This document shows, in pieces, positions 1-35,849 of a stretch of 35,849 nt of DNA (its first letter is position 1; each line of letters opens with the position of its first letter). The position numbers and the translations under genes are program-made. The DNA comes from a virus. Taxonomy: Duplodnaviria; Heunggongvirae; Uroviricota; Caudoviricetes. The notes under the pieces were generated by a model, which searched no databases, was not told where the DNA came from, and was given only the letters and a program-made list of their open reading frames with translations. Where the stretch lies: positions 1-35,849 of the IMG/VR virus record IMGVR_UViG_3300011584_000017; one strand, written 5' to 3'.

Positions 1-483
1 ATGACGAAGAAAAAAGCACATAAACCTGGTTCAGCGACCATCGCGCTTAACAAGCGCGCCCGTCACGAATACTTTATCGAAGAAGAGTTCGAAGCGGGAC
101 TTGCCCTGCAAGGCTGGGAAGTTAAATCCCTGCGCGCAGGAAAAGCCAATATCAGCGACAGCTACGTCCTTCTGCGTGACGGAGAGGCATTTCTGTTTGG
201 CGCTAACATCACGCCAATGGCCGTGGCCTCCACGCATGTGGTGTGCGACCCTACCCGTACCCGCAAGTTACTTCTCAACCAGCGCGAACTGGACTCATTG
301 TACGGTCGCGTCAATCGAGAAGGCTATACCGTAGTGGCGCTCTCCCTGTACTGGAAAAATGCCTGGTGCAAAGTGAAAATCGGCGTCGCCAAAGGTAAGA
401 AACAGCACGATAAACGTTCAGATATCAAAGAGCGCGAATGGCAGGTAGATAAAGCGCGTATCATGAAAAACGCCCACCGTTAA
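1..483 (+). CDS. smpB: SsrA-binding protein SmpB
   Basis: 160-aa ORF; sequence recognised from memory as enterobacterial SmpB; immediately upstream of the tmRNA gene, the conserved smpB-ssrA arrangement. Confidence 0.96.
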
Positions 484-697: not shown

Positions 698-1060
698 GGG
701 GCTGATTCTGGATTCGACGGGATTTGCGAAACCCAAGGTGCATGCCGAGGGGCGGTTGGCCTCGTAAAAAGCCGCAAAAAATAGTCGCAAACGACGAAAA
801 CTACGCTTTAGCAGCTTAATAACCTGCTTAGAGCCCTCTCTCCCTAGCCTCCGCTCTTAGGACGGGGATCAAGAGAGGTCAAACCCAAAAGAGATCGCGT
901 GGAAGCCCTGCCTGGGGTTGAAGCGTTAAAACTTAATCAGGCTAGTTTGTTAGTGGCGTGTCCGTCCGCAGCTGGCAAGCGAATGTAAAGACTGACTAAG
1001 CATGTAGTACCGAGGATGTAGGAATTTCGGACGCGGGTTCAACTCCCGCCAGCTCCACCA
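698..1060 (+). ncRNA. ssrA: tmRNA (transfer-messenger RNA, SsrA)
   Basis: Starts GGGGCTGATTCTGGATTCGACGG (tRNA-like 5' end) and ends ...GGTTCAACTCCCGCCAGCTCCACCA; internal tag reading frame at 787-819 encodes ANDENYALAA followed by TAA; about 363 nt. Confidence 0.96.
787..819 (+). other. tmRNA mRNA-like domain: proteolysis tag reading frame (ANDENYALAA-stop)
   Basis: GCA AAC GAC GAA AAC TAC GCT TTA GCA GCT TAA read directly inside the tmRNA. Confidence 0.9.
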
Positions 1061-1183: not shown

Positions 1184-1666
1184 ATGGAAGAACTTCACTT
1201 TGTTTACATCAATGCAAATGGTCGTATCGCTGTTCACTCTATACAGAGCATCAGTTATAGCGAAAATCATATACAGGGCATTTGTAAGAACACCGATCGA
1301 ATAAAAACCTTCCGAAAAGACTGCATTCTTAAACAGTACGATTCACCAGAACAAGCCATTCAGGAATGCGCGTCATTCCTCCCCGAAAGCTACTCACATC
1401 TCACTAAGCAGTCTGGTCCGAAAAAAAATACATTCGATGTATGTTTCACCGGATTTAAGAAAGCAGATAAAGAAAGATTGGTTGATAAGGCGAATGAACA
1501 AGGATTAACGGTAAGAACCTCTGTAACCCAAAGCCTTCAGATGCTCTGTTGCGGTTACAATGCAGGCCCATCAAAAGTATCGGCAGCCCGGATGAAAGGC
1601 ACAATCATCATAGATGAGCCTGGCTTTATACATTTTCTTGAAACGGGTGAGATCCCAGATGAATAA
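1184..1666 (+). CDS. Hypothetical protein with C-terminal BRCT-like domain (prophage cargo next to the attachment site)
   Basis: 160-aa ORF, AT-rich, RBS agagg 8 nt before ATG. The C-terminal ~75 aa (VCFTGF...GLTVRTSVTQSLQMLCCGYNAGPSKVSAARMKGTIIIDEPGFIHFL) follows the pattern of the BRCT domain of NAD-dependent DNA ligase; the N-terminal half is possibly WYL/SH3-like (weak). Confidence 0.6.
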   Translation: MEELHFVYINANGRIAVHSIQSISYSENHIQGICKNTDRIKTFRKDCILKQYDSPEQAIQECASFLPESYSHLTKQSGPKKNTFDVCFTGFKKADKERLVDKANEQGLTVRTSVTQSLQMLCCGYNAGPSKVSAARMKGTIIIDEPGFIHFLETGEIPDE

Positions 1667-1690
1667 AAACCTGCCGTAGCAGGTTCTCTT
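1661..1690. terminator. Hairpin terminator between the convergent BRCT-like ORF and ogr (strongest for the minus strand)
   Basis: Stem aacctgc-cgta-gcaggtt at 1668-1685; on the minus strand it is followed by TTTTATT. Confidence 0.5.
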
Positions 1691-1692
1691 TC

Positions 1693-1911
1693 TCAAAAAT
1701 TCATATGCCCCTGACCACCTGGCAATGGATGTGGAGGAGCAGTAGCAATCAGTGCGGGTGTCACAATAAACCGGACCACTGTTTCATGGGTAACAAAAGT
1801 GCTCCCGCAGTTAATATTTTGGCACTGGCAGTAACGCTCTTTGGTGCTTTCAGTTACTTGAAAACTGCTCCTTGTGTGTGCCGCATGACCACACTTTGGA
1901 CAATTCATCAT
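1693..1911 (-). CDS. ogr: Late-gene transcriptional activator Ogr (Cys4 zinc finger)
   Basis: 72-aa product from the internal ATG at 1911 (MMNCPKCGHAAH...CQCQNINC...HPLPGGQ); CxxC...CxxxxC zinc-finger pattern and overall similarity to P2 Ogr; located after D as in P2. Confidence 0.85.
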   Translation of the reverse strand: MMNCPKCGHAAHTRSSFQVTESTKERYCQCQNINCGSTFVTHETVVRFIVTPALIATAPPHPLPGGQGHMNF

Positions 1912-1979
1912 ATCCAGATCCCTACCTTTGCTATCAGAATCATTGTAATGATACACAAAATATCAATATTGAGAACACT

Positions 1980-3080
1980 TTATTCCATTTCAAGATCATC
2001 AATCTTCACTTCGAGTTCAATACTGGTTGTAAAACCGTTATCCGGGCTGACGGTATGTGTCAGAGTCGTAATGGTCCATTCCGCATCATCTATCGGCTGT
2101 TTAAAACCACTGACCTTCACAGGCATTTCCGTGTAGAGATCTGCCCGCCCTTCTGCCAGTTGTAGCGAGAATGACGCAACGCCACGTTGCAGGCGTTCCC
2201 ACTGCATTTTCGCCGCCCGTTCGGCGTTGCTCCGGTTGGCATAGGTGCGATTAAGTACCAGCACGTTTTCATCTGTACCCACCAGGTAATCGCCCTGCTT
2301 CGCTTCCGGCTCTTTCTTCTGCTTCTTAGTCCTGCGCTTACGCTTCACCGTGGTGCTTTCTTTCTTCGCGGGTTCGCGGGTATGCAACCAGCTGGCAATT
2401 ACGCCCGTGTAGGCTCCGCGATCTGCCAGGGTAAAGCGGTGACTGTCGCCGTCCTTACGTGTGATAGTGATAACCGGTAGTGGTTTACCGCTGGCGCTTT
2501 TACCCTGTCCCTGCCGGATGAATAACAGATTGCCATTTTTCACCGACGCAATAGCACCGTACTGGCGCGCCAGCCGCATCAGAAAACTGCCGTCACTCTC
2601 ATTGGTCTGGTCTATATGCTCCACAGGTTTATCCGACAGGTCTTTACCCAGTGCCATCTTCAGTTTGTGCCGCACAGCTATTTCCTTCACCACTTCCCCA
2701 ACGGTGGTCTTGTGCCACGATTTTTCACGGCGGATATTCAGGGTTTCACGAAAATCAGCACTTCGCGCCCGGATAGTCAGGCGGTCCGGTGCGCCAGTGT
2801 GTTCAATCTCGTCCACCGTGAATGCTCCTTTCGGGAAAAGCGACTGCCCCTTCCAGCCCAACGCCAGCGTAATGACCGCACCACGGCGCGGCAGCACGAT
2901 TTTTCCGTCGGCGTCGTCCAGCTCCAGATCAAGCTGGTCCGCTTCAAAGCCCCGATTGTCCGTCAGCGTCAGACTCATCAGGCGGTTATCCAGCACAGTG
3001 GTGATATCCTTACCCTCAATACTGATGCTGAATGCCGGAGTTTTGTTGCCTTTGTTAAGCAGTTCAGAGCTGAAATTCAC
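1980..3080 (-). CDS. D: Tail protein D (late gene D product)
   Basis: 366-aa ORF in the P2 gpD position after U; GTG start overlapping the U stop (GTGA). Confidence 0.85.
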   Translation of the reverse strand: MNFSSELLNKGNKTPAFSISIEGKDITTVLDNRLMSLTLTDNRGFEADQLDLELDDADGKIVLPRRGAVITLALGWKGQSLFPKGAFTVDEIEHTGAPDRLTIRARSADFRETLNIRREKSWHKTTVGEVVKEIAVRHKLKMALGKDLSDKPVEHIDQTNESDGSFLMRLARQYGAIASVKNGNLLFIRQGQGKSASGKPLPVITITRKDGDSHRFTLADRGAYTGVIASWLHTREPAKKESTTVKRKRRTKKQKKEPEAKQGDYLVGTDENVLVLNRTYANRSNAERAAKMQWERLQRGVASFSLQLAEGRADLYTEMPVKVSGFKQPIDDAEWTITTLTHTVSPDNGFTTSIELEVKIDDLEME

Positions 3081-8959: not shown

Positions 8960-9526
8960 TCAGGGGGATTCATTGATCTTATTTGCCGGAAATTTTCTAT
9001 AAATGGTAGAAACGCCTACATCAAAAATCAGTGCAATACGCTGTATTGATTCTCCGGCCTCGAGTAAACGCCCAATCTGTGCCCACTGTTCGGTGGTCAA
9101 CTTAGGACGGCGTCCACCTACTCTGCCTTTGGCACGAGCTGCAGCCAGCCCTGCCCTGGTACGTTCAACTATCAGTTCGCGTTCCATTTCAGCCAGGGCA
9201 CCCATGACATGAAAAAAGAAACGGCCCATTGGGGTACTGGTATCAATACTGTCAGTCAGGCTTCTGAAATTCACACCACGCTGGCGCAACTCTTCTATCA
9301 GCGTAACAAGATGCCGCATACTGCGCCCCAACCTGTCCAGCTTCCAGACAACCAGCGTGTCTCCTGCCGATAGTGTCCTGAGTAGTTTTTTCAGCCCCGG
9401 TCTGTCGGACTTAGTGCCACTGATTTTGTCCTCAAAAATCCGCTCACATCCCGCGCAGTTCAGTGCATTACGTTGCAAATCGGTGTTCTGGTCATTTGTT
9501 GACACGCGTACATAGCCAATAAGCAT
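8960..9526 (-). CDS. Site-specific DNA invertase, serine recombinase (Gin/Pin/Cin/Hin family)
   Basis: MLIGYVRVSTNDQNTDLQRNAL...VVWKLDRLGRSM...FFFHVMGALAEMERELI...: near-identical in pattern to Mu Gin; the ORF track start at 9532 adds MI before the likely Gin-like start. Confidence 0.92.
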   Translation of the reverse strand: MLIGYVRVSTNDQNTDLQRNALNCAGCERIFEDKISGTKSDRPGLKKLLRTLSAGDTLVVWKLDRLGRSMRHLVTLIEELRQRGVNFRSLTDSIDTSTPMGRFFFHVMGALAEMERELIVERTRAGLAAARAKGRVGGRRPKLTTEQWAQIGRLLEAGESIQRIALIFDVGVSTIYRKFPANKINESP

Positions 9527-9532
9527 GATCAT

Positions 9533-9608
9533 CCCCCTGAATAAAAACCGGAGATGATGCCAGTTAGCTGTTACCTCTGCATTTTCTTAAACGTTGGTTT
9601 GGGAGAAG
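9533..9608. repeat. Left inverted repeat of the invertible segment (contains the 15-bp core ttggtttgggagaag)
   Basis: Perfect 76-bp reverse-complement match to 11490-11565. Confidence 0.85.
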
Positions 9609-10093
9609 GCTCTGCATTACCTGTTGGTGTCCCTGTTCCGTGGCCTTCAGCCACTCCGCCAACAGGCTGGCTGAAATGCAATGGTGCAGCTTTTTCTGCT
9701 GAAGAATACCCGGAACTGGCAAAAGTTTACCCGACAAATAAATTGCCTGATTTACGTGGTGAGTTTATTCGTGGCTGGGATGACGGGCGGGGGATTGATA
9801 CAGGTCGCTCTATTTTAAGTATTCAGGGATATGCAACGGAGGATCATGCTCATGGATTACCGTCAAGATCCACGATTGTGACTGATGCAACTATTAATTT
9901 CTATTTTGATGAAAGCTGGGTAAATAGTGGCACTGACATTATCAAAAGAGGAAACACAAACGATGCTGGATTACCAGCACCGGATTATGGAACCTTTAAA
10001 ACATATAAACAATCAGTGGCTGGTTTAGGTGCCGCAGCCTCAGAAACGCGTCCGCGTAATATTGCATTTAACTATATCGTGAGGGCAGCCTGA
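9554..10093 (+). CDS. Alternative (silent in this orientation) tail-fibre C-terminal variable segment Sv'
   Basis: ORF shares GLGEGSALPVGVPVPWPSA with the end of the H constant region, then diverges; tail-fibre-like C-terminus; lacks the H constant part in this orientation. Confidence 0.7.
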   Translation: MMPVSCYLCIFLNVGLGEGSALPVGVPVPWPSATPPTGWLKCNGAAFSAEEYPELAKVYPTNKLPDLRGEFIRGWDDGRGIDTGRSILSIQGYATEDHAHGLPSRSTIVTDATINFYFDESWVNSGTDIIKRGNTNDAGLPAPDYGTFKTYKQSVAGLGAAASETRPRNIAFNYIVRAA

Positions 10094-10695
10094 TGCATAA
10101 AGCAATATTAAATAGTGAGCTCATTGCAACAAAGGCAGGGGATGTTACCGTTTATAACTATGATGGTGAAACACGGGAATATATTTCCACTTCAAATGAA
10201 TATCTTGCCGTTGGTGTCGGCATTCCGGCATGTTCCTGTTTAGATGCCCCTGGCACACATAAGGCTGGTTATGCAATCTGCCGTTCTGCAGATTTTAACT
10301 CATGGGAATATGTGCCAGACCATCGCGGTGAAACGGTCTATAGCACCGAAACAGGAGAATCAAAAGAAATCACCGCTCCGGGTGATTACCCTGAAAATAC
10401 AACCACTATCGCCCCATTAACGCCATATGATAAATGGGATGGTGAGAAATGGGTGACGGATACCGAGGCACAGCATAGCGCCGCAGTAGATGCAGCAGAA
10501 GCACAGCGCCAGTCGCTGATTGATACTGCAATGGCTTCCATCAGTCTGATTCAACTGAAATTGCAGGCCGGACGTAAACTGACGCAGGCAGAAACAACCC
10601 GGCTTAACGCTGTGCTGGATTACATTGACGCGGTGACGGCAACAGATACCAGCACCGCGCCGGATGTCATCTGGCCTGAACTGCCGGAGGCGTAG
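10093..10695 (+). CDS. Tail fibre assembly protein (U'-like, partner of Sv')
   Basis: 200-aa ORF with the typical Tfa C-terminus (...LDYIDAVTATDTSTAPDVIWPELPEA). Confidence 0.8.
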   Translation: MHKAILNSELIATKAGDVTVYNYDGETREYISTSNEYLAVGVGIPACSCLDAPGTHKAGYAICRSADFNSWEYVPDHRGETVYSTETGESKEITAPGDYPENTTTIAPLTPYDKWDGEKWVTDTEAQHSAAVDAAEAQRQSLIDTAMASISLIQLKLQAGRKLTQAETTRLNAVLDYIDAVTATDTSTAPDVIWPELPEA

Positions 10696-23978: not shown

Positions 23979-25721
23979 TTAGAATGCGGATTTGATTTTT
24001 TTCTCAAATGCCTCATATACAGGCTGGTTCATTTGGGCCGTTGCAGTAATAAGCTGTGAAAAATTTGATATACAATCTTTAACTTTTGTAGGACTTTTCA
24101 ACCCTCCTTCAACCAGTGCAGGCAGCAACTGATTACTTAAAGCCAGACACACATCTACAATTGGCTCCCAAATACTTTCAGCCTGAGAAGGAGAGACCGC
24201 ACTTCCAAACGAAACTCTAAATAAATTAGGAACGGGACGGCCCAAAAAGTTTTCCAAACATTCGGCAATAGCCGAGCACAATAAAGGTATTGAACCACGA
24301 TGCCTGAGATATCCCAATTGAGCGCCATCATTTTTTGAAAGAGTATCTTTCTTTGCCAAAGCTATTTTCTTGTTCTCAATACACCGCATGAGAGAATACG
24401 CACAAACAATATGTGAAGCTTTTGTACTGTCATTAAAAATCTTAGAATAATGAGAGTCATTAGTCCAAATTGCAGATCGCTGATTATAAGCTACCGTCGG
24501 CTCTCCATGGAAACTCATCAAAGCTTGACCAACAGTATAAGAAGGCAGTAGATTAGTTTTTCGACGAATGACACTTTCAGCACCTCCTCGTCTTCCTCCA
24601 TCATATTCAGCATCAGGAATAGAAGCAAATTCATTTTTAAGTCGTTTTTGAATTTTGTCTGTGCTTCTGAAATCAGATGCTTCAACTTTATTCTGACTGT
24701 TATTATACTGAATTATATTCTGAATTAGATCAGCATCCGCATCTTTGACTTTTATAAATCTAGCTTGGACTTTAACTGATTCTGGAGGTAATCGTGGCAG
24801 CGTTCCTAAAGCACCTGTTGTCTGTGCTCCATTAACTATTGACATCCCTCTGATTTTAAGATTCTTTGATGCTTCATTGAATTTATATTCATGAACCAAA
24901 ACAGTTACGCCATTATTGTATGCCCAAAATTCTGATGCTGAATTTTCCGCACTGTTACGGATACCATTATTGATATTTGAATCAGATGACCTTGATCCAA
25001 GGTAGTCTCTAACATTTGCTGAAAATATTTTTAATTTATGCTTTTTGTACGCTCTAGCTAAATCTCTTCCCTGAATGGTAGTACAGAATGCATTCCAATT
25101 ATCTCCTTTTATTTCGTAGCCACCATCACTGACTTTAATATTAAAAATATCATCAACCAGTATTGGTGATAGTGATTCACTATACCATTCCGTCAACTTT
25201 TCAGTGCCTACTTCCATTGCATGCACTTGTATTTTAGCATCTTCAAAATCATGTTTTAAAATAGTTGTTGCTGTCTGCTGAACCGTAATTAGCTCTTGAG
25301 CCACATTTGTTGAAGATGGTAAGTTATGAACATACCAAACGTACAGAGTTTTAATTTTCCCTTGTTTGATTGATGTCCGTATCTGTTGAGCAGAAGATTT
25401 TATTCTATCGGGTACATCATGCAAATCTCTTTGCAGAAGCCATGCTAAAGCAATATTAAGATCACTCGCTTTATTTGCTGGAGCTTCCTGTCTATCTTTG
25501 CTTGAGAAATAGCATTGAGCAAGTACAGCAAATTCTTCTTCTTCATTAATATACACAAGGTCACATTTCTTATCGTTATGTCCATCGGTAATGGACTCTG
25601 CTGCGACACTATCAATGTCATCAATTCTAAAATGTAATGCTAACGCAAACAAAGCCAGTCCATTATCACCATACGATTTCAAATCTTCTCTTGCAGAATA
25701 GGCTTGGTTCCAGGTACTCAT
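23979..25721 (-). CDS. AIPR-like protein (candidate abortive-infection / anti-phage defence protein); prophage cargo
   Basis: 580 aa from ATG 25721, which has a strong RBS (AAGGAG 5 nt upstream); visibly AT-rich relative to the phage core; no Walker A; motifs TDGHNDKKCDLVYIN and IVNGAQTTG that I associate from memory with the AIPR family; sits between Q and cos. Confidence 0.6.
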   Translation of the reverse strand: MSTWNQAYSAREDLKSYGDNGLALFALALHFRIDDIDSVAAESITDGHNDKKCDLVYINEEEEFAVLAQCYFSSKDRQEAPANKASDLNIALAWLLQRDLHDVPDRIKSSAQQIRTSIKQGKIKTLYVWYVHNLPSSTNVAQELITVQQTATTILKHDFEDAKIQVHAMEVGTEKLTEWYSESLSPILVDDIFNIKVSDGGYEIKGDNWNAFCTTIQGRDLARAYKKHKLKIFSANVRDYLGSRSSDSNINNGIRNSAENSASEFWAYNNGVTVLVHEYKFNEASKNLKIRGMSIVNGAQTTGALGTLPRLPPESVKVQARFIKVKDADADLIQNIIQYNNSQNKVEASDFRSTDKIQKRLKNEFASIPDAEYDGGRRGGAESVIRRKTNLLPSYTVGQALMSFHGEPTVAYNQRSAIWTNDSHYSKIFNDSTKASHIVCAYSLMRCIENKKIALAKKDTLSKNDGAQLGYLRHRGSIPLLCSAIAECLENFLGRPVPNLFRVSFGSAVSPSQAESIWEPIVDVCLALSNQLLPALVEGGLKSPTKVKDCISNFSQLITATAQMNQPVYEAFEKKIKSAF

Positions 25722-25804: not shown

Positions 25805-25823
25805 CTCGTATCCCCGCCACGCC
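25805..25823 (-). other. Putative cos site (cohesive-end sequence)
   Basis: Minus strand reads GGCGTGGCGGGGATACGAG followed by CGCGCGCTGGAGGG, closely resembling the remembered P2/186 cohesive ends (GGCG[A/T]GGCGGGGAAAGCA...). Confidence 0.45.
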
Positions 25824-25867: not shown

Positions 25868-25892
25868 CAAAAGCCCGCCAGAACTGGCGGGC
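25868..25892 (-). terminator. Rho-independent terminator downstream of the lipoprotein gene
   Basis: gcccgccag-aa-ctggcgggc hairpin followed by UUUU on the minus strand. Confidence 0.5.
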
Positions 25893-25996: not shown

Positions 25997-26674
25997 CTAG
26001 AACGTGACAGCCTTGTCAAAGCCAGAAATAATTGTATAAGAAATAGACGAGTTATCAGCCTTGTTCACTTTGAACTTGGCACCTTTGTAAGCGATAACGT
26101 CACTTCCCTTAGAATCTACAGAAAAATCTGTTGTAAATGCTGCACGAGCCATATCGTTTGCAAATTCACGATAGGTGAACTTCATTACACCGCCTGCATT
26201 TCCATTGTATTCGATAGTCTTAACCAATGAGTTACTAACTCGACACAGCCCATCAGGAACACGTTTGATAGAAATTTCTGATGCAGTATAAGAAGTACCA
26301 TTTGGCGGTGATATCTCATTTTTTGCAGCATCGTAACTAACATAATCAACATAGTTACCGATTTGCCCATAGAGATTTTTTAACGCAACAGCTTGAGGGT
26401 TATGATAATTGCGGTAAATTCCATTCCCCTCACTGCAATATGTACCAGCAGCGATAGAAGACAATGCACCATTAGCCGCACCAAGTTCTAGTACGTCCGT
26501 TTTAAATCCAGTAGCAGATGTGATAATGGGATCGCCCATGTAGGCGGTAGCACTTTGCCCAATAGCAGGCTTCACCACTTCAATAGCAGTGATATTTCGG
26601 TTAGAAGCATGTGGCACGCAACCAGTTAGGATTACAGCAAGAGATATTGGTAACGCTACATTATTAATTTTCAT
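25997..26674 (-). CDS. Putative lipoprotein (candidate superinfection-exclusion / surface protein); prophage cargo
   Basis: 225 aa from ATG 26674; signal peptide with lipobox MKINNVALPISLAVILTGC; Gly/Ser/Thr/Tyr/Asn-rich mature part ending in a C-terminal Phe; AT-rich; flanked by its own terminators. Confidence 0.7.
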   Translation of the reverse strand: MKINNVALPISLAVILTGCVPHASNRNITAIEVVKPAIGQSATAYMGDPIITSATGFKTDVLELGAANGALSSIAAGTYCSEGNGIYRNYHNPQAVALKNLYGQIGNYVDYVSYDAAKNEISPPNGTSYTASEISIKRVPDGLCRVSNSLVKTIEYNGNAGGVMKFTYREFANDMARAAFTTDFSVDSKGSDVIAYKGAKFKVNKADNSSISYTIISGFDKAVTF

Positions 26675-26695: not shown

Positions 26696-26733
26696 TTGAC
26701 AAAAAACAAGGCGATATCTGATTGACATCGCCT
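26696..26733 (-). terminator. Terminator of the SOS-regulated tum/DinI-like operon
   Basis: Hairpin aggcgat...atcgcct followed by a U-run (UGUUUUUUG) on the minus strand. Confidence 0.45.
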
Positions 26734-26787
26734 CTCACTCATATGTAACCCTTTTTGATTAGTAAAAACAAGCGTCTATTGACAAAA

Positions 26788-27021
26788 TCAATGCAGCCAG
26801 CTGTCGTCTTCCCACACCTTCTGCATAATTTTCATCACTTGTTTTCTTTCTTCGTCCAGTTGCAGTCCGGTCAGTTCCACACCGTTAGAGCTACCTTTAC
26901 GGATACGGATTACCGTTTTGGGATACAGGGGGCGCAGATTGCGGTAAAGCTCGGATTCAAGGGCGTCCAGGGTAGACTGGCTAATCTTCTGCTCTTTATC
27001 GATCATTATTTCAATGCGCAT
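26788..27021 (-). CDS. DinI-family protein (Tum C-terminal-domain-like, SOS-induced)
   Basis: 77 aa from ATG 27021 (MRIEIMIDKEQKISQSTLDALESELYRNL...VWEDDSWLH), clear DinI-like sequence; RBS GAGGTG 6 nt upstream; the longer track ORF from 27093 is an artefactual extension. Confidence 0.8.
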   Translation of the reverse strand: MRIEIMIDKEQKISQSTLDALESELYRNLRPLYPKTVIRIRKGSSNGVELTGLQLDEERKQVMKIMQKVWEDDSWLH

Positions 27022-27031
27022 AAAAGTCACC

Positions 27032-27220
27032 TCAGCTGATGACATCCATTGAGCGGTTGTATTCGTGGCTTCTGATTTTTGCCATGAGTTCATCAGTCAA
27101 TTCAGAAACCCACTGCAGAGCCAGCTCCTTCTCTTCATCACTACACTCACTAGCCGCTACAAGCTTAAGAAAAAAATCAATGCGCTGGAGCTTCAAAGAC
27201 TCCAAAAAATAGTCCTGCAT
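27032..27220 (-). CDS. Small acidic protein, first gene of the LexA-controlled operon (candidate antirepressor/Tum N-terminal-like)
   Basis: 62-aa ORF with RBS GGAGG; its stop TGA lies inside the RBS of the DinI-like gene (translational coupling). Confidence 0.55.
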   Translation of the reverse strand: MQDYFLESLKLQRIDFFLKLVAASECSDEEKELALQWVSELTDELMAKIRSHEYNRSMDVIS

Positions 27221-27263: not shown

Positions 27264-27279
27264 CTGTTTATATTTACAG
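27264..27279 (-). promoter_or_regulatory. LexA box (SOS box) overlapping the promoter of the tum/DinI-like operon
   Basis: CTGT-ttatattt-ACAG, exact CTGT-N8-ACAG with AT-rich spacer, 44-59 bp upstream of the 62-aa ORF start. Confidence 0.7.
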
Positions 27280-27374: not shown

Positions 27375-29789
27375 TTAATACAGGTTCCGCCACTTATCAT
27401 CTTCCTGCAAACGCTGGTTCCGATAGAAGATACGCAGGCCTGCTCCTGACGGAATACTGCCGCCGCGAAGGAGTAAATCGACCTCTTTCTCGCTGCCATC
27501 AAATCCTCTGGATTTCAGTTCATAGACGAGCTGCTGTCGTTGATGGTCTGTAATTCGCTGTTTGTAGTCTCTACGCCGTTTCGGTTTCACCAGACGTAAC
27601 CTTGCAGCCAGTTCCCGGCGCCCCTTTTTGTTCATACTGTGCAGGTAATCGTGCAACTCCTTGTCATCCATGCGGGTAAAGTCCGTTCTGGGGCCCCCAT
27701 CAGCTGATTTATCTTTCTCCTGTTGGTTCAAATTTTCAGCAAGGGGACAGTTATTGCCACGAGTCCAAGGGGCGCAAGCGCCCTGGTCGGCTGCCGCCTC
27801 CTGAACGTCAACGGCCTTACGAACCATTTTCCACTTCACTGCATGAGTGCAGATCTTGCCCTCTGCAATGGGTGACCAGATGCCATAAATACGAATACCG
27901 TGATCGCCATAGGCGGTCGGCTCTTCGTTGATTTCATAAGCGGTTCTGATGAGGTGATATTTACGGGGAACCAGTACGCCGCCCTGCTTCATGATGTAGG
28001 TGGCATAGCAACCAGCATCAGCTGCAGCCAGAATGGCATCAAGGCGCGGGTTATCCAGTACCGGCGCACCTGCTTTTTTGTCACCCTGTTGCCTTGCCGC
28101 CTGACCAGCCAGCAATCGCAGTTCACGATAAGCCTGACGCCCCGGAATGCCAAAGAAGCGGAATTGCTGAACACGATGCAGAGACGCCCAGGCATTAACG
28201 TATTCAGCGTTATCACGCAGGGATTTACCCGTTTCCTTGCTGATCTCGCCAGCCAGACCACGCCCGTCAATGTTCTTACTGATGTATTTCGCGATGTAGC
28301 TTGTCGGCGTTCCTTTGCGCGGGTTTATCAGCTCAGATTTAAAGCGTGGACCAGTGTTATTACCCAGTTCCTCGCGGTCTTCACGGATGGCAAATTTACG
28401 CAACAATGCAGTAATGGCGCGGCGGTCTTTTTTGCGCATGAAACACAACAGGTGCCAGTGAACTGTACCGTCATGATGCGGCTCAGCCACCCGCACGCCA
28501 TACCAGCGCAACCCGGCTTTGTGCATCGCCTTACGAAATGCAGCAAACATGCCGACCAGATAATCGCTGCTTTGTCTTACCGTCGCATTTGTCCAGGTTG
28601 GGTTTGGTCTGCCGTTATTGAGCGTGGAATGGAAACGTGACGGACAGGTAATGGTGTAGAAAACGGCGCAGTCACCGCGCATTTCCGCGATAAGCTCCAG
28701 ACCTTTAACACAGGCCATCATCTCATTGCGGCGGTGCGCCGGGTTGCTGCTGCTGGCGTTTACCACGTCTTCCATATCCAGCGTGTCGCCCTCTTCGTTC
28801 ACCAGTTCATGAGAACGGAAAAACTCCAGTGACTTGCGGCGCTGCTCACGTTTATGCATCACGGCTTCATAGCTGACATAGGGAGATGCTTTTTTGCTGA
28901 CCAGGCAGACAGCACGCAACTGCTCTTCCCGCCATTCGCAACGCATTTTCCATAATTTCCGGTACCACCAGTCGGCGCACAACATACGCGCCAGCGAACC
29001 CGGAATGAGTTCATAGGGCACGGGTTTACGGCGGTTTCTTTTCCGACGGAGTTGCTCAAACGCAGGCGGGATGACATCCAGACGCAGGGTTTCCGCTGCC
29101 ACCTTTTCCCATGTCTTGCGGATTTCTTCTGGCTTAACGTCATCGGTGGCATACAAATCACCACAAGCTGCATCAAGGCACATGCTCATATGCGCAGCGA
29201 CAAGGGTAGACAGGCGTTTCACCTGATCCTGACTCATTTCAGGCAGGATCAGCAGGCCGTCCAGCCCTACATGGCTTGCCATAAAACGAAAAGATGCAGA
29301 TAGCTGGCTGTCGCGTACATGCTCCAGTCGTTCCAGACATGGCTTAATCGTCTCACGTAAATAGCGGGAATAAGCCTTTGGCCTGCCCAGGCTGCTGAAG
29401 TATTCAATACGTTGCATCAGCGGCTTGCTGATATGAGAAGGCTGGGCGTTGACGTCCGCCAGAATGACCATATCCGGATTAAAACGCTGCTGCTCATGCG
29501 CCAGCTTTGCCCGGCTAATGAGCTTATCCTGCTCCATTTCGTGCTGGACAGGATCACGTGATTCATTAAAAAAATAACGCTCCCAGACCTGATCACTCAG
29601 TGCCTCGCGGCGCAACTGTTCCTGCTCGTTATCGGCAGCGTACAGAGTGATCAGGTTTGAAAGCGCAGAAACCGGCGCAACTTCCGCCGGGTCCAGATAA
29701 GGGTTAATGGCCTTTTTCGGGCTGTTCCATGAGAACGCTGCGGCAACCTCGTTAAAGCCGTAGCAGTTGTTCATATCGGCATGGCTCAT
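27375..29789 (-). CDS. A: Replication initiation protein A (rolling-circle initiator)
   Basis: 804-aa ORF in the gpA position at the end of the early operon; ATGA overlap with the upstream methylase gene. Confidence 0.88.
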
Positions 29790-34790: not shown

Positions 34791-35849
34791 ATGAAAATTA
34801 AACTAACATCAATCATTGCCTATACCATTATATCTATTATTATTGCACTAGGTTTAGTGTATACCAATAGACCAAGAATCTTTGTTTTATTTAGCATATT
34901 TCATATCCTTGGTGTGGTTGTTATATTCTATTATTTCAACTGGTTAAAACTTAATGAGAAAAACCTATTAAAGCAGCCATTATTTATAGCTTCAATTATC
35001 ATACCGTTAGAAATGTTTATTTTGTATGGCCTTTGGGCATGGAAAGGTCACAGTTTAGATTTTACGTCAGAAGGCTTTAATCAATTCTTAGATATCTCTA
35101 AATTACCATTGTTAATTTTAGCTTCTTCTGTTCCTCTTGCATCAATAGTAAATAATATACACAGAACAACTCAGACAGAGAATCAGATTGAAAAAACACA
35201 AAAACAAATCAATCTTGTAATTGAAAAGAATAAAACTGATTCTTATTACTCACATCTAAAAAGTTACGCGGATATTTTTAAAACACTACCGGCTTTTAAA
35301 ATATCAAGATTAAACAAAAATGATGGAAGCACGGAATACATTGAATTATCTGTCGTTCATCCTTACACTCTCTACAAAAATATATTCAAATCATCTTCAA
35401 TCGATAATGGATATAGCACCACGGTCGAAGATGGCTTCATAAAAAAAACAAAACACCTTTATAACAAAATAAACAAAAGCCTTACATCAAAAAATACTAC
35501 TCATGATATCCAATTATCTAATCTGCAACTAATAGAATCACACATAATTGAACTATGCCGATTACTTGGGATTGACTATAAATACCAAGAACATCTATTT
35601 CTAATAATTTTTGAGAATCCCAAACATAATATAGAATCAATAACTATCTCATATAGTGATGAAAAACAACTTAAGCAAATGCTTTGGGGGCTAAGAAACA
35701 TTCTCATTGAACTATATATTTTAATTGACGAAGACCCCAATATTTTTCTAGCAAGCAAAAATACTGGTAACGTCATCCCTGATTATGCCCTATATTTTGA
35801 AAATCTGTTTACACACATTCTCCCTATCTCAAATAAAATGCGTATGTGA
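34791..35849 (+). CDS. Hypothetical membrane protein (about 4 N-terminal TM helices plus Lys/Asn/Ile-rich soluble domain); candidate prophage-expressed exclusion/defence factor
   Basis: 352-aa ORF starting 4 nt after the int stop, ending with TGA at the last window base; extremely AT-rich compared with the phage core; weak RBS. Confidence 0.6.
   Translation: MKIKLTSIIAYTIISIIIALGLVYTNRPRIFVLFSIFHILGVVVIFYYFNWLKLNEKNLLKQPLFIASIIIPLEMFILYGLWAWKGHSLDFTSEGFNQFLDISKLPLLILASSVPLASIVNNIHRTTQTENQIEKTQKQINLVIEKNKTDSYYSHLKSYADIFKTLPAFKISRLNKNDGSTEYIELSVVHPYTLYKNIFKSSSIDNGYSTTVEDGFIKKTKHLYNKINKSLTSKNTTHDIQLSNLQLIESHIIELCRLLGIDYKYQEHLFLIIFENPKHNIESITISYSDEKQLKQMLWGLRNILIELYILIDEDPNIFLASKNTGNVIPDYALYFENLFTHILPISNKMRM

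Follow-up and report, generated by a model that had tools for sequence, protein, structure and literature searches.

What does a single lipoprotein gene do at the site where phage P2 carries its accessory genes tin and old? The question is raised by a 35,849-nucleotide (nt) stretch of DNA, the IMG/VR record IMGVR_UViG_3300011584_000017 (the whole of which is referred to here as the window), which comprises smpB, ssrA and then a P2-like prophage of the Fels-2/186 type. Close to the cos packaging region, its minus strand encodes a 225-amino-acid (aa) prolipoprotein that an original prediction, made without database searches, had put forward as a candidate superinfection-exclusion factor. The comparisons described below point to a strongly conserved accessory gene that acts without a fixed partner, and to a product that is probably exported and lipid-anchored. 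Superinfection exclusion at the cell envelope would be our best guess at its function, and a tentative one.

Conservation and predicted export of the lipoprotein

The gene and its targeting signal occupy the following positions:

25997–26674, minus strand: coding sequence of the lipoprotein, an intact open reading frame (ORF) of 225 codons encoding the 225-aa prolipoprotein
26618–26674, minus strand: signal peptide and lipobox L-T-G-C, residues 1–19, read from the sequence

The encoded protein is identical to RefSeq entry WP_000700647.1, is found at 100% identity in 24 records of Klebsiella phages or prophages of the P2-like kind and is 99% identical to STM2726 of Fels-2. WP_000700647.1 is carried by 50 of 5,426 complete Escherichia coli genomes, and the ORF is intact in all 50 carriers and in all 57 viral contigs. 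Sequence comparison marks this as a real gene under strong purifying selection: the ratio of nonsynonymous to synonymous substitution rates (dN/dS) is 0.065–0.068 against natural variants of 93–94% nucleotide identity and 0.056 against an 82%-identical variant. Two longer versions of the ORF were considered and rejected. The mechanical ORF list starts at ATG 26728, inside the putative terminator hairpin described below, and both the homologues and RefSeq begin with MKINN; the 243-aa ortholog in the Fels-2 record (NC_010463, 5947–6678) has an 18-codon N-terminal extension that also starts inside that hairpin. The shorter, 225-aa form is backed by RefSeq E. coli records and all homologues.

The gene had been described as AT-rich, and it is: its G+C content is 40.7%, compared with 53–55% for the phage backbone. 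In the 206-aa mature part, whose last residue is Phe, Ala accounts for 12%, Ser for 10%, Gly for 9%, Asn for 8%, Thr for 7% and Tyr for 6%; these counts agree with its earlier description as Gly/Ser/Thr/Tyr/Asn-rich with a terminal Phe, Ala being the commonest residue.

At the N terminus (MKINNVALPISLAVILTGC), a basic n-region and a hydrophobic core precede the lipobox LTGC (MK-INNVALPISLAVI-LTGC), the arrangement by which bacterial lipoprotein signals are recognized (basic n-region, hydrophobic h-region and lipobox [LVI][ASTVI][GAS]C). The codon for the lipobox cysteine, Cys19, lies at 26618–26620, and the +2 residue is Val. The canonical lipobox claimed from the single sequence holds across relatives, as Cys19 is invariant in 22 close homologues and a lipobox is present in 248 of 290 scorable family members. 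Within those 248, the +2 residue is mostly Ala, Thr, Val or Ser and is Asp in none. Under the sorting rule of Enterobacterales, Val at +2 with no Asp predicts transfer to the outer membrane. The product is thus probably exported, with lipid anchoring and an outer-membrane location both predicted.

Two further cysteines, C80 and C144, are invariant in the close homologue set, and the mature part contains exactly two cysteines in 182 of 249 family members; such a pair would fit a disulfide bond of an exported protein in the oxidizing periplasm. Conserved polar residues are E170, R177 and D187. AlphaFold2, run with 22 homologues, returned a confident all-beta model with 17 strands (mean predicted local-distance difference test, pLDDT, 80; predicted template modelling score, pTM, 0.60), in which residues 1–27 are disordered, as expected of a signal peptide and tether. 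A fold search with this model gave no match in the PDB or BFVD.

Location of the gene beside cos

The packaging region was placed by alignment to P2:

25797–25960, unstranded: cos packaging region, aligned to P2 cosL/cosR and flanks

Read along the minus strand, the order is gpA (27375–29789), a LexA box, a 62-aa ORF, a DinI-like gene, a hairpin, the lipoprotein gene, a GC-rich hairpin and cos. The cohesive-end 19-mer GGCGTGGCGGGGATACGAG at 25823–25805 (minus strand) matches that of P2, GGCGAGGCGGGGAAAGCAC, and the flanking blocks are conserved. The lipoprotein gene hence directly precedes cosR, with the A/tum genes on its other side. This is exactly the position of tin and old in P2, where the original prediction had located it and where the alignment with P2 cos confirms it.

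The DinI-like stop codon (window position 26790) coincides exactly with a break in homology in ~1,020 other E. coli with a P2-like prophage. The flanking dinI-like gene occurs in ~1,070 of the 5,426 complete E. coli genomes, as against 50 for the lipoprotein gene. Such presence or absence between related phages and a deviant base composition (40.7% versus 53–55% G+C) are two of the traits of a phage moron. On the other side, sequences beside differing cargo diverge ~10 nt beyond the cos 19-mer. The ~165 nt from the lipoprotein stop codon to this divergence point are ~90% conserved, even beside variants of 79–88% protein identity. We considered, and rejected, the idea that this stretch belongs to a mobile lipoprotein cassette; it is conserved because it is cos.

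These alignments indicate that the gpA–gpQ hotspot of P2-like phages is two slots parted by cos, which differ in behaviour. The A-proximal slot holds the lipoprotein gene in all loci examined. The Q-proximal slot, from cosL to the portal gene, shows fast turnover, carries defence cargo and is empty in P2. Rousset et al. treat gpA–gpQ as one hotspot (PMC9122126), whereas here cos splits it and the lipoprotein gene is always A-proximal.

An autonomous gene beside variable cargo

In the window, the Q-proximal slot is filled by one gene:

23979–25721, minus strand: AIPR/AbiU-like abortive-infection gene, 580 aa, beyond cos, in the interval from cosL to the portal gene

Its product matches Pfam AIPR (1.8e-34), PADLOC AbiU (1.9e-34) and phrog_1841 (8.5e-244). 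With a G+C content of 37%, it is one of several divergent AbiU-type genes found at this slot in related phages. To survey the cargo, the sequence between the lipoprotein and portal genes was clustered for the 57 viral contigs and the annotated carrier loci. Beside a lipoprotein of 96–100% identity there are ~25 different cargo arrangements, and four loci have none. PADLOC-DB defence models are matched by 14 of 20 scanned proteins from the slot. The recognized or candidate defence genes there are divergent AbiU/AIPR genes, bSEFIR, ShosA, AbiL with SIR2, PDC-S06, PDC-M03A/B, PDC-S49 and genes whose products resemble PD-T7-4, NsnA, PD-T4-2 and PD-Lambda-3. Because the same lipoprotein stands beside ~25 cargo sets or none, it is autonomous and not a component of the AIPR system. 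This agrees with the proposal that it is a stand-alone accessory gene: the lipoprotein appears to act without a fixed partner and is the common member of all loci examined.

A catalogued protein without recognizable relatives

The lipoprotein is already catalogued, and uncharacterized. WP_000700647 is listed among the P2-hotspot loci in Table S5A of Rousset et al. 2022, and a variant differing at a few positions appears in Table S5B as the single-gene 'system #44', with 84 occurrences and the entry 'signal peptide: yes' (PMC9122126). Literature searches on the accessions, on STM2726, on the Fels-2 lipoprotein and on defence by lipoproteins of integrons or prophages turned up no functional study.

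The remark that the protein has no recognizable motif was borne out by every type of search. The window lipoprotein has no Pfam family at E ≤ 1 and no real NCBIfam match, 73 diverse family members match no Pfam family (E ≤ 0.01), and PADLOC-DB v2 holds no defence-protein model for it at E ≤ 1. A sequence-profile search of the PDB returned noise only (E about 1), in line with the fold search above. PHROGs gave only families of unknown function, of which phrog_1353 covers residues 1–223 of 225 (E = 3.1e-105).

A large family on mobile elements

A profile search of 1.84 billion representative proteins returned 2,434 clusters at 50% identity with E ≤ 1e-3, of which 1,256 had E ≤ 1e-10. Most of the best 150 of the 2,434 matches are 205–260 aa long. 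Named members come from Gamma-, Alpha- and Deltaproteobacteria and Opitutales, all annotated 'hypothetical' or 'lipoprotein', and marine or environmental hosts include Marinobacter, Pseudoalteromonas, Shewanella and Methylotuvimicrobium. Each family context that was inspected is a mobile element or accessory region, and no partner gene recurs across them:

Buttiauxella, P2-like prophage: homologue in the same slot, with a SEFIR/TIR gene next to it
Klebsiella pneumoniae, islet: homologue with serine recombinases and a putAbiC gene
Pantoea island and Citrobacter prophage end: an OLD-like ATPase-TOPRIM gene in each
Klebsiella aerogenes siphovirus prophage, and Acinetobacter and Moraxella phages: homologue at an accessory site of the tail module, directly 5′ of the tape-measure gene
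Marinobacter region: homologue with an integrase and insertion sequences
E. coli IncFIB non-mobilizable plasmids of 95–110 kb: homologues 37–38% identical, lone and oppositely oriented, beside a DnaB-like helicase
Vibrio parahaemolyticus chromosomal integron: 32%-identical homologue as a single-gene cassette between attC-type repeats

The IncFIB carriers are probably phage-plasmids of the SSU5/pHCM2 type. Cassettes around the V. parahaemolyticus homologue encode toxin-antitoxin, acetyltransferase and Mrr-like restriction genes. Elsewhere, one 80%-identical copy adjoins a CS1-type fimbrial operon. Mobile elements of many types have each captured the gene independently.

Flanking hairpins and expression

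The elements that bear on expression are:

26701–26734, minus strand: 11-bp hairpin followed by a U-run, past the dinI-like gene and before the lipoprotein ATG, identified by folding and covariation
25869–25892, minus strand: GC-rich hairpin GCCCGCCAG/CTGGCGGGC followed by UUUU, ~100 nt past the lipoprotein stop codon
26788–27021, minus strand: DinI-like gene, TumB-like
27032–27220, minus strand: 62-aa ORF in TumA-like position, first gene of the upstream operon
27264–27279, unstranded: LexA-box consensus CTGTTTATATTTACAG, overlapping the −10-like TATACT, 5′ of the 62-aa ORF

The upstream hairpin (26734–26708) has a folding energy of −16.7 kcal/mol (z −4.7 against shuffled sequence). Across five variants, 98% of cells retain pairing and three pairs show compensatory changes, which is consistent with a conserved RNA structure in this small sample of five. 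It is likely to be a terminator or attenuator of the upstream SOS operon. The downstream hairpin (25892–25873; −23.6 kcal/mol, z −5.3 against shuffled sequence) is kept in divergent variants and sits within the conserved cos flank, not in a private cassette. Upstream of the lipoprotein ATG there is a weak AGG Shine-Dalgarno sequence at a distance of 6 nt. The sole pair of promoter hexamers that was found was rejected, its −10 element overlapping the ATG.

The 62-aa ORF and the DinI-like gene form a probable SOS-controlled two-gene operon with a TumA/TumB layout, resembling the tum antirepressor locus of phage 186. The LexA-box call rests on its position and is a single match without statistical support. 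The sole published expression datum that we found for the lipoprotein concerns its Fels-2 ortholog under the mutagen MX: in a microarray of Salmonella TA100 (Fels-2 positive), STM2726, STM2727 and STM2728, a predicted operon, all rose significantly, by 2.6- to 14.8-fold (PMC2225428). The LexA box 5′ of the 62-aa ORF and the joint rise of the Fels-2 genes suggest that read-through from the SOS-controlled, tum-like promoter accounts for at least part of the expression of the lipoprotein. A general induction of the prophage would yield the same microarray signal. The gene had been described as monocistronic, with its own terminators. Two strong hairpin/U-run structures do flank it, and both look functional. 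Monocistronic transcription is at best putative: no credible promoter was found, and the ortholog rose together with the upstream operon.

Comparison with known envelope and hotspot proteins

Llp of T5, Cor of phi80 and N15, and TraT of F are outer-membrane lipoproteins that exclude phages or conjugation. The lipoprotein of the window, with its predicted outer-membrane location, resembles each of them in some respects and is unrelated to them in sequence so far as the searches reach: Pfam gave no match to TraT (PF05818) or Bor (PF06291), models that we take to be in Pfam (E ≤ 1 for the query, E ≤ 0.01 for the 73 family members), and the PHROGs search of the lipoprotein gave none to Cor or Llp, families presumably included in PHROGs, with no pairwise comparison made. 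It had been judged much larger than Llp and Cor, and indeed its mature part has 206 aa, against ~60 for Llp and ~70–80 for Cor.

Llp is a phage-encoded outer-membrane lipoprotein of lytic development that prevents superinfection and the inactivation of progeny, and the SOS-coupled rise of the Fels-2 ortholog would fit the same logic. The llp gene, however, adjoins the gene for the receptor-binding protein, and its product blocks FhuA, whereas the gene described here adjoins cos. Cor (phi80, N15, HK022) is likewise a prophage outer-membrane lipoprotein made from a single gene, excluding at the receptor or entry step; unlike the window lipoprotein, it is a protein of ~70–80 aa encoded in the tail-fibre region. 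TraT of F-like plasmids is nearest in size (~240-aa precursor) and is also an outer-membrane lipoprotein that is borne by a mobile element and acts alone. TraT mediates surface exclusion and serum resistance, whereas the window lipoprotein is predicted to be all-beta without a relative in the PDB. Bor/Iss of lambda is, like the lipoprotein, the product of a prophage accessory gene that lies in AT-rich foreign DNA with a terminator at its border, and is an outer-membrane lipoprotein, but Bor has 97 aa and confers serum resistance, and no homology to it was found.

The P2 genes old and tin share with the lipoprotein gene the slot between the replication/tum genes and cosR and the status of non-essential accessory cargo. 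Their products differ: Old, an ATPase-TOPRIM nuclease, and Tin, which acts on T-even phages, are both cytoplasmic, whereas the lipoprotein is predicted to be exported and is unrelated in sequence. Moreover, old and tin are transcribed in the opposite direction, from a promoter near cos, whereas the lipoprotein gene is co-oriented with the tum operon.

Superinfection exclusion and its alternatives

We tentatively favour superinfection exclusion at the cell envelope. In such a mechanism, the lipoprotein, anchored in the outer membrane, would act alone in the envelope, where it would bind a conserved envelope component or a part of the incoming phage. It would thereby block adsorption, DNA entry or re-adsorption, with an outcome like that of Llp, Cor and TraT achieved by an unrelated protein. 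Read-through from the LexA-controlled tum-like promoter would raise the lipoprotein at prophage induction, as happens with T5 Llp in lytic growth, and the protein would protect the induced cell and its progeny. The neighbourhood of the gene has a defence character: the partner slot holds mostly recognized defence genes, and some islands with family members carry putAbiC or OLD-like genes. It is possible, though we regard it as doubtful, that the family as a whole is an unnamed one of ~220-aa envelope lipoproteins with a fold not in the PDB, serving on many mobile elements as a one-gene envelope barrier against phages or other invaders and raised by the SOS response in P2-like phages.

Several observations weigh against exclusion. 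P2-like phages adsorb to the core of lipopolysaccharide (LPS), which a lipoprotein would mask poorly, so self-exclusion is unlikely. At 100% identity between E. coli and Klebsiella and under strong purifying selection, the protein gives no hint of the diversification expected from an arms race, and its presence on an integron cassette and on non-phage islands fits equally well with any envelope function that benefits the host. About 15% of the family have an ordinary signal peptide in place of the lipobox. The 34 nt that separate the upstream hairpin from the lipoprotein ATG contain no credible σ70 promoter, and the expression data point to induction by DNA damage, not to expression in the lysogen. 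Homology, fold and defence-model searches and the literature gave no link between the family and phage resistance, and the systems that Rousset et al. 2022 tabulate as cloned and tested (PMC9122126) do not include the sequence.

Some of these same points suit a factor of lysogenic conversion that improves host fitness (by protecting the cell from serum or complement, from antimicrobial peptides, from bile or from envelope stress, or by mediating adhesion, in the manner of Bor or the serum-resistance role of TraT). The evidence for export, lipobox and mobile elements serves this explanation equally, the 80%-identical copy beside the fimbrial operon suits it, and the integron cassette, a sequence that is identical in different genera and the absence of diversification fit a generic benefit to the host. 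Non-defence cargo, namely toxins and partition systems, is also borne by the P2 hotspot (Rousset et al., PMC9122126). However, the protein has no homology to Bor, Iss or TraT, the family extends to marine and environmental bacteria to which serum is irrelevant, and its sole expression data show induction by DNA damage rather than constitutive expression; on balance we consider a fitness factor unlikely. Less probable again is immunity to, or a shield against, weapons that target the envelope, such as a peptidoglycan hydrolase, lipase, colicin, tailocin, effector of a type VI secretion system or tail lysin of an incoming phage (as with Spackle of T4). Many known proteins that confer immunity to periplasmic effectors are lipoproteins. 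The role would suit a small protein that is predicted to be secreted, all-beta and disulfide-bonded and that has conserved E170, R177 and D187; it would also fit the occurrence of lone family genes on integron cassettes and islands and the soluble periplasmic forms of some members.

Against the exclusion reading stand two further explanations that the genomic comparisons speak against directly. One is a two-gene defence system formed with the AIPR/AbiU-like neighbour. The two genes are adjacent and co-oriented, and their pairing recurs in 8 of ~60 loci, but cos lies between them, ~25 other cargo sets or none accompany the same lipoprotein, AIPR genes occur at the hotspot without it and distant family members are never beside AIPR; we regard this partnership as largely refuted and barely credible. 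The other, a functionless hitch-hiker left as a remnant of the cos-proximal region, would account for a gene with no assignable function and no promoter found. It is very improbable for a gene with a dN/dS of ~0.06 and an ORF intact in 50 E. coli genomes and 57 viral contigs, which belongs to a family of ~2,400 clusters with a conserved lipobox and conserved cysteines and which many mobile elements have captured independently. A spanin or other lysis role was rejected: the protein greatly exceeds an o-spanin in size and is encoded far from the late region with its P2-like lysis genes, a site that we assume from the gene order of P2 and not from annotation of the window.

Significance of the locus

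Most systematic anti-phage searches target cytoplasmic systems that act on nucleic acids or by abortive infection, and exclusion factors that act at the envelope are a short and diverse group, catalogued poorly so far. The lipoprotein offers a clean test case: one gene, strongly conserved, in the best-known defence hotspot of P2-like phages, from a family of thousands of clusters without annotation or structural relative. Carriers of the identical protein include P2-like prophages of carbapenemase-producing Klebsiella ST11, ST258 and ST512. Its target would reveal either a new class of exclusion, of relevance to the host range of Klebsiella and E. coli phages in phage therapy, or a new function of lysogenic conversion. 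The exclusion hypothesis is reasonable and cheap to test.

Other features of the prophage

Directly 5′ of the prophage lie smpB (1–483, plus strand) and the ssrA gene for transfer-messenger RNA (tmRNA; 698–1060, plus strand; Rfam, 295.8 bits). The prophage is thus an immediate neighbour of ssrA, the integration site of Fels-2. Between ssrA and the first recognizable phage late gene, at 1184–2136 (plus strand), are ORFs of 160 and 143 aa with a G+C content of 43% and no Pfam match, possibly another accessory locus at this end of the prophage. At the other end of the window, a 352-aa ORF (34791–35849, plus strand; 30–37% G+C; no Pfam match) directly follows the integrase gene and lies either past the prophage end or within it as an extra cargo gene. 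Finally, a Hin-type serine invertase gene (8960–9532, minus strand) adjoins an ORF with a tail-collar domain and a tail-fibre assembly gene on the opposite strand, and the whole segment (8960–10695) looks like an invertible tail-fibre region that determines host range.

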